This document shows positions 11,088-12,866 of a DNA stretch of 12,937 nucleotides, piece after piece. Numbering within the stretch: position 1 is the first letter of the stretch; each line of letters starts with the position of its first letter. The position numbers and the translations under genes are program-made. The DNA lies in the UHGV virus genome UHGV-0262016. One strand, 5' to 3'. The DNA comes from a virus. The notes beneath the pieces are model-generated. The model saw only the letters and a program-made list of their open reading frames with translations, did not search any database and was not told where the DNA came from.

Positions 11088-11423
11088 GAAGGAAACAAAA
11101 CAGAAACAACAATTGCCGTTACCTGTTGTTACCATGGCAAGTAAACGCATCTCAGGCGAGCGCATTGCACCGTTCTGACGCAGATAAATTAGCCTGGATA
11201 GATGGTGCTGGCAATAAAAAATAGCGTTTTCTTATCGGTGTCGGTAAGATTGCTGCGGGTGCTTGAGGCTGTCTGCCTCGGGCATGCCACTGTAAGGCAG
11301 GCAGAGAAAAGCCCCAGTTAACATTACGCGTCCGGCAAGACGCTTAACATTAATCTGAGGCTCCCTATGCATGACAACATCAGGTTAGCCTCTTACGTGC
11401 CGAAAGGCAAGGAGAAGCAGGCT

Positions 11424-11579
11424 ATGAAGCAGCAAAAGGCGATGTTAATCGCCCTGATCGTCATCTGTTTAACCGTCATAGTGACGGCACTGGTAACGAG
11501 GAAAGACCTCTGCGAGGTACGAATCCGAACCGGCCAGACGGAGGTCGCTGTCTTCGTAGACTACGAATCTAGAGAGTAA
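11424..11579 (+). CDS. hokD: Hok/Gef-family type I toxin (51 aa), HokD/RelF-like
   Basis: Product MKQQKAMLIALIVICLTVIVTALVTRKDLCEVRIRTGQTEVAVFVDYESRE is a Hok-family signature, nearly identical to HokD/RelF as recalled. SD GGAG 9 nt upstream. An in-frame upstream ATG at 11367 (SD GAGG 6 nt upstream) gives a 70-aa mok-like extended frame. Confidence 0.8.
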   Translation: MKQQKAMLIALIVICLTVIVTALVTRKDLCEVRIRTGQTEVAVFVDYESRE

Positions 11580-11649: not shown

Positions 11650-11670
11650 AACCCGCTTCGGCGGGTTTTT
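11650..11670 (+). terminator. Intrinsic terminator at the hok mRNA 3' end
   Basis: AACCCGC-TTCG-GCGGGTT followed by TTTTT. The same 20-bp core recurs at 12498-12517. Confidence 0.75.
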
Positions 11671-11685
11671 CGTCGCATTATGAGG

Positions 11686-11733
11686 TTGTAATTTTAGCTA
11701 CCATTAGACTATCCTAAGGATCTCAAACAGATC
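11686..11733 (+). promoter_or_regulatory. Candidate promoter (-35 TTGTAA 11686-11691, -10 TATCCT 11710-11715) with an adjacent inverted repeat GATCT-N5-AGATC (11719-11733) upstream of the Doc-module ORFs
   Basis: Hexamers with an 18-bp spacer. The palindrome contains two GATC sites and sits at the predicted transcription start, the usual place for an autorepression operator. Confidence 0.35.
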
Positions 11734-11796
11734 TATTTTGCATCAAATTTGGTGCATGGCTTTGCCAATAATCGGAAAACAAAAGGACTCATTAGT

Positions 11797-11976
11797 ATGA
11801 GCTGCCCACTCAAAAAACACACGCGGTTGAGTATTCCGCCTCGCGATAAAAGCGTTGTGGCAGTCCCTCGCCCAGCGATTGATGAAAACTGCGCACATCG
11901 TGAACAAGTGAAAAATGCTTTTGATTTCGGTTTTTCTCGTTATGAGAAAGCCATGGAAGAACTTTCAAAAGTGTAA
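11797..11976 (+). CDS. Small ORF upstream of the Doc-family toxin; candidate antitoxin of non-Phd type
   Basis: ATG at 11797 with SD AAGGA 9 nt upstream. Product MSCPLKKHTRLSIPPRDKSVVAVPRPAIDENCAHREQVKNAFDFGFSRYEKAMEELSKV (59 aa). Ends about 20 nt before the toxin start. Role inferred only from its position. Confidence 0.45.
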   Translation: MSCPLKKHTRLSIPPRDKSVVAVPRPAIDENCAHREQVKNAFDFGFSRYEKAMEELSKV

Positions 11977-11994
11977 TGATGGGTATTGTGCTCT

Positions 11995-12480
11995 ATGGCT
12001 GAGATTGTTGAAGGAGTGCATTACCTTACGGTTGATGATCTTGTTGAAATCAATCGTTCCCTAATTGAATTACAGACGCCAGATGAGCCCGTTGGTGTTC
12101 TGAGTCCAGATAACTTAAGTTCTTCTCAGGCCCGTCCCAGCATGGTTCGATGGTATGAACAGACTAATGACATGTTTGTACTGGCATCGGTATTGATTGA
12201 AAGTCTGATTCAGAATCACCCGTTTGCTAATGCGAACAAACGAACAGCTATGATGGCTGGTTACGTCTTCTTGTTGTTGAATGGCTATGAGTTAACAGCA
12301 CCAGGCGATGAAATCGTGGAAATGGCAGAGGGACTGGCCTGCAAAATCTATACTCGAGAAGATCTCGAGAACTGGTTGTGTTATTGGTCTCGCGCGTATG
12401 ACAGCCGGGAATTATGTAAAACAGGCGCAACTATTGTTTTGTATGAAACTATCAAGCTTAAAATAGAACAGCAAAACTAA
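11995..12480 (+). CDS. Doc-family (Fic/Doc fold) toxin, 161 aa
   Basis: Contains the Doc signature H-x-F-x-N-A-N-K-R (HPFANANKRTAMMAGYVFLLLNGYEL); the N-terminal segment (YLTVDDLVEINRSLIE) is also Doc-like. Start taken as ATG 11995; a TTG at 11986 is possible. Confidence 0.75.
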   Translation: MAEIVEGVHYLTVDDLVEINRSLIELQTPDEPVGVLSPDNLSSSQARPSMVRWYEQTNDMFVLASVLIESLIQNHPFANANKRTAMMAGYVFLLLNGYELTAPGDEIVEMAEGLACKIYTREDLENWLCYWSRAYDSRELCKTGATIVLYETIKLKIEQQN

Positions 12481-12496
12481 AGGTGCTTCCAATGAA

Positions 12497-12518
12497 AACC
12501 CGCTTCGGCGGGTTTTTT
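12497..12518 (+). terminator. Intrinsic terminator after the Doc gene (second copy of the 20-bp terminator repeat)
   Basis: AAAACCCGC-TTCG-GCGGG followed by TTTTTT; core identical to 11651-11670. Confidence 0.75.
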
Positions 12519-12593: not shown

Positions 12594-12866
12594 ATGGCGC
12601 ACAATACCAAACATCACAATTCTGATACCGACCTTGCCAGCAGGCACGGGCGGCGTTCTCATACATTCAAATATGACTGGTACCAGCATGATCCATGCAC
12701 TGAAGAACAGGCCGAATGGCTGATTCAGAACTACCGCAGACGCGGATACGAGATTAAGAAAGCCCTCAGCCTCGATTATCGTCACTGGATAATCTACGTC
12801 AGGCTGCCGTACTCCGAGCGCCCACCGCGTCCGTCCCGTACATTCCAGCAACGCATCTGGAGGTAA
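12594..12866 (+). CDS. Hypothetical 90-aa basic protein (possibly Rem-like by position after hok)
   Basis: Start taken as ATG 12594 because the upstream part of track ORF 12483..12866 runs across the terminator hairpin. SD is weak. Positional analogy to Qin rem only. Confidence 0.4.
   Translation: MAHNTKHHNSDTDLASRHGRRSHTFKYDWYQHDPCTEEQAEWLIQNYRRRGYEIKKALSLDYRHWIIYVRLPYSERPPRPSRTFQQRIWR

Follow-up and report, generated by a model that had tools for sequence, protein, structure and literature searches.

A Doc-family toxin gene and its 59-residue upstream partner form an optional, terminator-bounded cassette behind hok in a lambdoid prophage

The window, that is, the whole analyzed stretch of 12,937 nucleotides of the virus genome UHGV-0262016, contains a cassette of approximately 850 bp that lies between two hairpins and carries a 59-aa open reading frame (ORF) followed by a gene of the Doc family. 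All features described here are located on the plus strand. The left neighbor is a hok/sok locus, in which a sok/hok regulatory RNA region was recognized at 11257–11429 (Rfam RF01794 “sok,” 109.6 bits against a gathering score of 59), together with a HokD-like toxin gene of 51 aa at 11424–11579 (Pfam HOK_GEF, E = 4.3e-23), the homologs of which carry the hokD annotation in related genomes. The left hairpin with its T-run (11650–11670) is the hok mRNA terminator. A leader of 126 nt, designated type A (11671–11796), extends from this hairpin to the start of the 59-aa ORF (11797–11976), and the Doc-family gene (11995–12480; 161 aa from its ATG) begins 18 nt downstream. The right hairpin with its T-run (12497–12517) forms the right boundary of the cassette and is its own terminator. 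No transposase, integrase, or inverted repeats were found within the cassette. A Ren-like exclusion protein is encoded elsewhere in the same window.

The 161-aa protein is a member of the Doc family, which has the Fic fold, and it carries the catalytic motif of the family. The TIGR01550 DOC_P1 model was matched with 126.4 bits against a cut-off of 38.65 (E = 6.6e-37), Pfam Fic with 46.6 bits against 24 (E = 6.6e-12), and phrog_577, a “Doc-like toxin,” with E = 1.3e-50. The PDB sequence matches were Doc chains only, namely 9vzc (E = 7.7e-13) and P1 Doc (E = 6.7e-5). The motif HPFANANKR, read off the sequence at residues 75–83 (12217–12243), agrees with the Doc consensus HxFx(D/N)(A/G)NKR (PMC4177925) and has Lys, not Gly, at its eighth position. 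Residues H75, F77, N79, N81, K82, and R83 were invariant among 33 subfamily members; conservation of A78 and A80 was at least 90%. This full conservation suggests a probably active enzyme that would need an inhibitor. By analogy with P1 Doc, the protein would be toxic, acting as a Doc-type kinase that phosphorylates EF-Tu and stops translation.

The Doc model covers residues 11–130 of the 161 (profile positions 2–122 of 122), so that approximately 30 residues extend past it. Both the 59-aa ORF and the C-terminally extended Doc-signature protein had been noted in a preliminary description of the locus, and both were recovered here. Residues 131–141 of the extension were conserved across the subfamily, and the last 20 or so were variable; the conserved part reads WLCxWSRxYDSRxLC and contains two conserved Cys. 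The AlphaFold2 model of the protein was poor (mean pLDDT of 61.8), and its best PDB fold matches were chains of P1 Doc, the family fold of which has six helices, and were weak (E = 6e-3, TM 0.44–0.57). A PADLOC search returned sub-threshold Fic-domain matches for the Doc protein and none for its 59-aa partner.

The two genes are strictly paired and diverge together. Of the 100 loci with the small ORF, 94 were retrieved by way of this ORF; in all 100, a Doc homolog started 3–22 nt downstream, and in all four loci found via Doc alone a member of the 59-aa family lay 0–9 nt upstream; the small gene directly preceded Doc, with a gap of 0–22 nt, in 104/104 loci examined. The identities of the two proteins fell together (r = 0.96). 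The 59-aa family comprised 38 representatives among 1.84 billion proteins and corresponds to phrog_2208 (E = 7e-41 for the window protein), which is listed with function unknown in PHROGs; its closer alignment, A1, served as the query for the genome and viral collections. Length and both termini were conserved. The ORF is under purifying selection, with a dN/dS of 0.12 overall and 0.07 in the C-terminal helix, where the constraint within the protein was strongest. The N-terminus, which bears an RLxIPxRDK motif, was predicted to be disordered. An AlphaFold2 prediction from a 13-sequence alignment gave one amphipathic helix at residues 34–57 (pLDDT > 90) and no regular structure for residues 1–33. 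The protein ends in ...RYEKAMEELSKV. We propose that the upstream gene encodes the cognate antitoxin of Doc, the conserved C-terminal helix (residues ~34–59) of which would bind and block the toxin.

The 59-aa protein is not a Phd/YefM antitoxin, as had been supposed from its lack of a recognizable fold signature. The window protein itself matched nothing in Pfam or NCBIfam. At E ≤ 1, no Phd/YefM match was obtained in Pfam or NCBIfam for any of 37 family members, no Phd chains were found in the PDB by the family profile, and the folded N-terminal alpha/beta DNA-binding domain of the Phd/YefM type was absent from the AlphaFold2 prediction. A likeness to the Phd C-terminal helix appeared plausible by eye, but hhalign against P1 Phd, the query sequence of which was confirmed against 3hry, gave a probability of 1.2%. 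Two further candidates were discarded: the FicA/VbhA inhibitory motif (S/T)xxxE(G/N) was absent from the window protein, with no Glu conserved family-wide, and a match to ribosomal protein eS25 (E = 0.2–0.9) was weak and was treated as chance.

A different relationship was suggested by the closest outgroup Doc genes (34–42% identity), which have TIGR02609 (doc_partner) proteins upstream. TIGR02609 was also the sole NCBIfam family matched by more than one member of the 59-aa family (5/37, best E = 0.027), with no match for the window protein itself. These single-sequence matches, at approximately 13 bits, lie below the cut-off of 55.9 and the 56–89 bits of genuine members; in one of them, residues 12–55 aligned with profile positions 31–74 of 74 (12.8 bits). 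When the two family alignments were compared with hhalign, a 25-column match ending at both C-termini was obtained (P = 2.6e-4, probability 42%), and its score of 26.5 was reached in 0/300 column shuffles (maximum 18.1). The doc_partner HMM gave positive scores for 37/37 members, and the printed alignments shared one register and ended at the C-terminus. In addition, the C-terminal end of the window protein fits the conserved TIGR02609 tail ...Y-x-x-A-h-K/R-E-L-x-K/R at the very C-terminus. Taken as a whole, these comparisons point to a moderate C-terminal similarity between the two families. Because the similarity is limited to ~25–45 residues, mostly one amphipathic helix, convergence is possible. 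The weak HMM alignments spanned only roughly the C-terminal 45 profile positions, and neither PF04014 nor TIGR01439 nor the GNS motif was detected in the 59-aa family, the AbrB/SpoVT head being missing. The protein thus looks like a TasA-type antidote minus the N-terminal half of the AbrB/SpoVT DNA-binding domain. Having apparently lost this DNA-binding head, it may neutralize the toxin without classical operator-binding repression. The TasA/TIGR02609 tail and the Phd C-terminal helix are thought to act likewise on Doc. The earlier suggestion of an antitoxin of unusual type was overstated, given the TIGR02609/TasA partners of the outgroup Doc genes, the alignment of the tails, and the tabulation of the family in 2006.

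The leader was compared among related loci. It contains a −10-like TAGACT (11705–11710), the palindrome GATCTCAAACAGATC with two GATC sites (11719–11733), the element TGGCTTTGCCA (11757–11767), and a Shine–Dalgarno sequence AAAGGA (11782–11787). A candidate promoter with a palindrome had been proposed here; the palindrome was confirmed, whereas a consensus scan found no consensus sigma-70 promoter on the plus strand of the leader, nor was a consensus promoter present in the O104:H4 version. In megablast comparisons, homology to the other E. coli loci broke off at precisely the ATG (query position 127). Leader types B and C, inspected by eye, resembled diverged versions with different palindromes; the palindromes varied among the E. 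coli leader types, and the antitoxin N-termini were nearly identical. An own promoter was clear only in Providencia-type relatives, where TTGACT-17-CATTAT was found; a palindrome in the spacer was seen by eye.

The cassette shows a presence/absence polymorphism at the hok-terminator site. Complete E. coli genomes, 5,426 in all, were compared; the gene pair was found in 125, both genes being present in 125/125, whereas the reconstructed empty hok-terminator junction occurred in 2,126 (once at 100% identity; locus L003 is an example). These counts bear out the earlier view of an inserted toxin-antitoxin cassette, which is optional, the junction being uninterrupted in those 2,126 genomes. At the same spot, other loci carried alternative cargo, and in the Qin prophage of K-12 rem directly follows hokD, as had been stated, after the same hairpin. 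The cargo hotspot also houses hok/sok and, in O104:H4, RelE/HTH. The module was also found within tail-gene clusters of other phage types. A search of the phage GenBank collection gave a single distant DNA match, Salmonella phage SW-37 (72%), which indicates that in GenBank-type records the cassette is essentially confined to prophages. Two features of morons were seen, namely insertion at a point where the flanking genes are neighbors in related phages and an own terminator. The cassette is probably a self-contained type II toxin-antitoxin unit, an optional “moron” cargo of a lambdoid prophage that sits in the early-right (nin-like) region immediately behind hok/sok.

The terminator repeat defines both edges of this unit. 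The 20-bp core ACCCGCTTCGGCGGGTTTTT occurred exactly twice in the window, at 11651–11670 and 12498–12517, as previously described, and 0/200 shuffles matched this; the identity extends one base further left, giving a 21-bp repeat, AACCCGCTTCGGCGGGTTTTT, at 11650–11670 and 12497–12517. Both copies fold into a C(UUCG)G hairpin with a T-run behind it (−13.9 and −14.9 kcal/mol, respectively); in the left copy this run is shortened to five T residues. The right copy was scored terminator-like by a consensus scan. In genomes with the empty site, and likewise in K-12 Qin, hokD ends in the same hairpin. In 25 related loci without hok and without an upstream copy, the identical hairpin CCCGCTTCGGCGGG was located 3' of Doc, which identifies the right copy as the module's own terminator. 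Compensatory stem variants, for example, CCCAC...GTGGG, followed Doc in other lineages, and at least eight distinct downstream contexts started directly after the T-run of the right hairpin. The terminator belongs to the Doc module. It has the same sequence as the hok terminator, and we propose that recombination within or right next to these common 21 bp led to the exact bracketing and to the many different downstream neighbors.

Taking these observations together, we consider it likely that the locus is a prophage type II cassette, in which a Doc kinase is paired with a 59-aa antitoxin similar to the TasA tail, and which has its own terminator and was brought in by recombination at or close beside the shared 21 bp. 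The preliminary description held instead that the insertion had duplicated the terminator, and such a target-site duplication, with the cassette entering the hok terminator and duplicating ~20 bp in the manner of a transposon or integrase, agrees with the perfect 21-bp direct repeat that flanks the insert relative to the empty site, with the resumption of the empty-site sequence beyond the right copy, and with the restriction of the exact hairpin core to the two positions flanking the insert across 616 kb of related loci. However, the 25 loci that lack hok and the upstream copy retain the identical post-Doc hairpin, more distant lineages have compensatory variants of it 3' of Doc, this hairpin likewise ends a different cargo found at the site, and the cassette is devoid of transposase, integrase, and inverted repeats. 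Moreover, 21 bp is unusually long for a target duplication. The insertion itself probably did not duplicate the terminator, and the transposition-like origin appears highly improbable. Slightly less remote, but still very unlikely, is that the 59-aa protein is not an antitoxin but a small regulator, a leader peptide, or an unrelated phage protein traveling with Doc, the Doc-like protein being self-controlled (e.g., by its C-terminal extension) or having a non-toxic role. No antitoxin family model reached its cut-off, the N-terminal two thirds of the small protein were predicted to be disordered, and the Doc protein has an extra conserved C-terminal segment with two conserved Cys, all of which would fit such a reading. 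It is opposed by the classic antitoxin position of the gene (upstream, same strand, 0–22 nt gap), by the absolute co-occurrence and co-divergence of both proteins, by the alignment of the most constrained part, the C-terminal helix, to the tail of an established family of Doc antidotes, and by the fully conserved catalytic motif of a probably active enzyme that would need an inhibitor.

The biological role of the cassette would lie in prophage stabilization or phage exclusion. With the same parts, it might serve mainly in abortive infection or exclusion and not in addiction: infection would deplete the labile antitoxin, Doc would halt translation, and the host population would be protected. 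We regard this tentatively as a possible, if less probable, main function. The hotspot shared with hok/sok and, in O104:H4, RelE/HTH, the Ren-like exclusion protein in the window, the occurrence of the module inside tail-gene clusters, which is typical of morons, and the growing link of toxin-antitoxin systems to phage defense in the literature (PMC10440598) are consistent with it, whereas the PADLOC matches were weak and below a useful level, no sensor component was evident in the cassette, and the paradigm, P1 Doc, is an addiction system. A further, rather unlikely extension of the type II reading is that of a “headless” antitoxin, in which the 59-aa protein is essentially the TasA toxin-binding tail without a DNA-binding domain. 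Control of the operon might then have been passed to the prophage context (read-through from hok or phage transcription, or the palindrome with its Dam sites), the conserved extension of Doc with its Cys residues could alter its regulation or target, and the module would be an infection-triggered translation shut-off housed in a lambdoid prophage cargo hotspot.

Although real, the cassette interpreted here as a type II unit is not very remarkable: it belongs to a known kind of system, and its gene pair was tabulated among predicted systems as early as 2006. Its value lies partly in closing an annotation gap: pipelines name the toxin and call its partner a “hypothetical protein,” and PHROGs gives “unknown function.” A link of the 59-aa family to TasA/TIGR02609 would complete the toxin-antitoxin annotation in ~2% of E. 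coli genomes and in many Enterobacterales prophages. A tail-only antitoxin would also offer a handy natural minimal case for Doc kinase neutralization and for operon regulation without a DNA-binding head. The hok-terminator site represents a clean prophage cargo hotspot, in which the terminator hairpin doubles as a module boundary. These results leave current views standing and extend the known picture of type II systems as modular combinations of interchangeable parts.

The cassette was compared with several known systems, among them loci described by Fico and Mahillon (PMC1626090). The TasAB system of Bacillus thuringiensis plasmid pGI1 is a functional MazE/AbrB-Doc system, TasB being toxic in E. 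coli, and its authors pointed out the conserved C-terminus of the antitoxin (PMC1626090). As in TasA-TasB, the toxin of the window is a Doc homolog and the antitoxin gene is directly upstream, and the TasA tail ...Y-D/R-x-A-F/L/M-K/R-E-L-V/A-x-K/R aligns with the ...RYEKAMEELSKV end of the 59-aa protein. The latter, however, lacks the N-terminal ~30 residues, the GNS motif, and the AbrB/SpoVT match, and the window toxin is approximately 30 residues longer. In the same paper, “group 2” composite Doc loci of S. Typhi Ty2, Y. pestis CO92/KIM/91001, and P. aeruginosa PAO1 were tabulated only, with upstream ORFs without similarity to known proteins; the supplementary alignment of the group ends in ...QVKNAFxFGFxRYEKAMEELSKV (PMC1626090). 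This is the same antitoxin family, and the Y. pestis locus was recovered independently in our analysis as L017; the paper does not make the link to the TasA C-terminus or describe the prophage cargo site and the terminator structure. A literature search, including by RefSeq protein accession, found no functional test of the 59-aa/Doc family; the Y. pestis orthologue was beyond the reach of this search.

The P1 Phd-Doc system shares with the cassette a prophage location, the order with the antitoxin first, and an HxFx(D/N)(A/G)NKR-type motif, and by analogy both antitoxins would be expected to work via a C-terminal helix; the Phd-C helix alone, in a SUMO fusion, neutralizes a Doc toxin (PMC10440598). 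In contrast to Phd, the 59-aa protein has no detectable Phd similarity and no YefM/Phd N-terminal domain. P1 Doc has low identity to the window protein (E = 6.7e-5) and Asp in the motif where the latter has Asn, and P1 is a plasmid prophage, whereas the window belongs to an integrated lambdoid prophage. Class I Fic antitoxins (VbhA, FicA/YhfG) are likewise small helical proteins encoded upstream of a Fic-fold enzyme, but the window protein is without (S/T)xxxE(G/N) and its toxin has the motif NKR, not the AMPylating GNGR. Finally, the cassette resembles lambdoid morons in being present or absent at a precise junction, in its own terminator, and in the alternative cargos at the site, such as rem in Qin, and it differs from them in that a consensus promoter is absent from the window leader.

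The cassette lies to the right of a genuine hok/sok locus, with hok at 11424-11579 (Pfam HOK_GEF) and sok at 11257-11429 (Rfam sok), and the remainder of the window is a lambdoid prophage early region with repressor, CII-like, O-like, and Ren-like genes. A 70-aa ORF at 11367-11579 overlaps hok in the same frame from an upstream start, as expected of mok, the reading frame that provides translational coupling in hok/sok loci. The preliminary description had placed the same 20-bp terminator at the ends of the hok locus and the Doc gene, and this 20-mer was found exactly twice in the window, at 11651-11670 and 12498-12517 (0 of 200 shuffled sequences had a match). Since the identity runs one base further to the left, the full repeat is the 21-mer AACCCGCTTCGGCGGGTTTTT, at 11650-11670 and 12497-12517. 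Each copy folds into a GC stem capped by a C(UUCG)G tetraloop, with a T-run after it, and the right copy was recognized by the terminator scan. From left to right, the interval between the copies contains a 126-nt leader, a 59-aa ORF (11797-11976) preceded by a good Shine-Dalgarno match, AAAGGA (11782-11787), an 18-nt gap, and a 161-aa ORF (11995-12480). Directly 3' of the cassette, and 5' of a DUF968 (YdfU-like) gene, is an 89-aa ORF (12597-12866; phrog_1212, function unknown) that carries the annotation "hypothetical" in every related genome.

The cassette is an optional cargo at a precise site, in agreement with the earlier proposal of a toxin-antitoxin insertion after hok. A 102-bp "empty site" query was built by joining the outer flanks of the two copies, left of the left one and right of the right one. 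It matched 2,126 of the 5,426 complete E. coli genomes at ≥80% coverage, in one case with 100% identity, and examples were read directly (L003). The Doc and 59-aa genes were detected in 125 genomes, always on the chromosome and always together, and only 38 genomes had both flanks in common with the window. Other cargo at the same spot includes a 130-aa lipoprotein-like ORF likewise ending in the same hairpin (L004-L006), a rem-like ORF after Doc in some genomes (L002, L010), and a RelE/HTH pair at the downstream side of the site in O104:H4. In K-12 Qin, rem directly follows hokD after the same hairpin, as the preliminary description stated. The site right after the hok terminator is a cargo hotspot of lambdoid prophages (L002-L006, L008, L010, L115).

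The exact repetition of the terminator had been attributed to its duplication upon insertion of the cassette. Comparison of 98 related loci with both flanks readable makes such a target-site duplication unlikely, because in 25 of them the identical CCCGCTTCGGCGGG core directly follows Doc although hok and an upstream hairpin are both absent. More distant lineages keep the hairpin structure after Doc with altered stems (CCCAC-TTCG-GTGGG, CCCGC-TCAG-GCGGG, and CCACC-TACG-GGTGG), which also speaks against duplication. Immediately past the T-run of the Doc hairpin, at least eight unrelated sequences take over, and a search of 616 kb of related loci located the exact core after hok and after Doc only. 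The right-hand terminator belongs to the Doc module. The best reading is that one and the same hairpin terminates both hok/sok and the Doc cassette, and that modules are joined or exchanged at the shared 21 bp.

By its sequence, the 161-aa protein belongs unambiguously to the Doc family: it scored 126 bits against TIGR01550 (cut-off 38.65), matched Pfam Fic and the PHROG "Doc-like toxin," and retrieved only Doc chains in the PDB sequence search. Residues 75-83, HPFANANKR, fit the consensus HxFx(D/N)(A/G)NKR, which distinguishes Doc kinases from AMPylating Fic proteins (PMC4177925), and H75, F77, N79, N81, K82, and R83 are invariant among 33 members of the subfamily. The C-terminal extension noted previously is real, since the TIGR01550 model stops at residue 130; subfamily-wide conservation covers residues 131-141 (WSRxYDSRxLC), and the last ~20 are variable. 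The AlphaFold2 model was of low confidence (pLDDT 62), although its best PDB matches were still P1 Doc. An inverted repeat with 7-bp arms, CTCGAGA-AGA-TCTCGAG, lies inside the coding sequence (12353-12369), was flagged as terminator-like on the minus strand, and is kept in O104:H4 at L008 3557-3573; it could be a coincidence.

The 59-aa ORF is a real gene: its dN/dS is 0.12 over the whole length, rising to 0.21 in residues 1-33 and falling to 0.07 in residues 34-59. Its product had no match in Pfam, NCBIfam, PADLOC, or PDB and falls into phrog_2208 ("unknown function"). The family is small: a 5.8-billion-protein set yielded 15 clusters, and exhaustively searching 1.84 billion proteins with an HMM gave 38 representatives. 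Members are almost all 47-60 aa long, and their common pattern is [RK][LIV]xIPxRDK ... P[RK]P ... HxxQVxNAFxxxFxRYEKAxEELSKV, which reaches the very C-terminus. AlphaFold2 predicted no regular structure for residues 1-33 and a single confident helix at 34-57. The family (window 11797-11973) is weakly similar to the first 45 residues of the eukaryotic ribosomal protein eS25 (PDB 8jiw_BZ; E = 0.2-0.9), which was taken as chance. A Doc homolog starts 3-22 nt downstream in all 100 loci containing the family (6 E. coli, 14 other Enterobacterales/Orbaceae species, and 80 viral contigs), and the identity of one protein declines with that of the other (r = 0.96). A reverse look-up with four subfamily Doc proteins from other genera, chosen against selection bias, revealed a family member 0-9 nt upstream in all four, two of which sit in tail-gene clusters of other phage types. 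In Pantoea and Lonsdalea (L112, L114), the pair lies between tail genes (tape measure, DNA circularization, and baseplate proteins) of Mu/P2-like prophages, indicating that the module moves between unrelated phage types and different genome positions.

The promoter scan revealed no consensus sigma-70 promoter in the leader, where a candidate had been proposed. The GATCT-N5-AGATC palindrome is real (GATCTCAAACAGATC, 11719-11733); its two GATC (Dam) sites, 11 bp apart, lie just 3' of a −10-like TAGACT, so methylation-sensitive expression is a possibility. In Megablast comparisons, homology to most of the other E. coli copies ends exactly at the ATG of the 59-aa ORF. The other leader types, B and C, lack the GATCTCAAACAGATC motif and by eye look like diverged versions with palindromes of their own. 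Across these types the antitoxin N-termini are almost identical, which argues against this palindrome as a conserved operator for the 59-aa protein. Providencia orthologs carry a clear TTGACT-17-CATTAT promoter whose spacer contains, by eye, a 20-bp palindrome that is nearly perfect; thus, autonomous, autoregulated transcription seems plausible for the family, though unproven in the window.

The 59-aa protein is not a Phd: no family matched, and profile comparison with P1 Phd gave a probability of 1.2%. The protein likewise lacks the FicA/VbhA inhibitory motif. The nearest Doc genes outside the subfamily, on plasmids of Enterococcus, Staphylococcus, Bacillus, and Leptospira (34-42% identity), have 77-94-aa AbrB/MazE-type proteins upstream that score 56-89 bits on TIGR02609 (doc_partner). 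Such pairs correspond to TasA-TasB of B. thuringiensis pGI1, the toxin of which is toxic in E. coli (PMC1626090). TIGR02609 was matched by five of the 37 members (best E = 0.027; in one, residues 12-55 onto positions 31-74 of 74), and no other NCBIfam family was matched by two or more. By the TIGR02609 model's own criteria, the 59-aa protein is not a member. Profile-profile comparison with 31 doc_partner proteins aligned the last 25 columns end to end (P = 2.6e-4, probability 42%), and none of 300 column shuffles reached the real score (26.5 versus a maximum of 18.1; reversed control, 14.2). All 37 members scored positive with a doc_partner HMM, and the alignments printed share one register and finish at the C-terminus. 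By eye, the doc_partner endings KYRNALRELAK and YDKAFKELVNR match RYEKAMEELSKV of the 59-aa protein, and we infer that SVVAVPRP, which precedes this ending, resembles the last AbrB strand, GILLSPYDP. On these grounds we read the protein as a TasA-like antidote that would have kept the putative toxin-binding tail, the N-terminal half of the DNA-binding domain having been lost together with its conserved GNS motif. Doc neutralization by a short C-terminal helix acting as a module is established, with Phd-C fused to SUMO sufficing (PMC10440598). In Sinorhizobium medicae pSymB (L108, 541-693), a 50-aa "hypothetical" ORF ending in RYPKVTEYLAK lies upstream of a Doc homolog and may be a second, independent tail-only antitoxin.

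No functional study of the 59-aa/Doc pair was found in the literature searched. Fico and Mahillon (2006) cataloged ten groups of non-TasA ORFs upstream of Doc homologs; "group 2" comprised five gamma-proteobacterial members, from S. Typhi Ty2, three Y. pestis strains, and P. aeruginosa PAO1 (PMC1626090). Its supplementary alignment ends in QVKNAFxFGFxRYEKAMEELSKV (PMC1626090), the same C-terminal ending, and group 2 is thus the 59-aa family. The observation in the preliminary description was confirmed and its interpretation was partly right: this is an inserted Doc cassette and the partner is not Phd-like, but the terminator duplication and the "unusual" type of antitoxin were wrong or overstated. 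The system belongs to the known composite Doc toxin-antitoxin class, in a previously cataloged group; what is modestly new is that its minimal antitoxin can be linked to the TasA tail and that the cargo site at the hok terminator is described.
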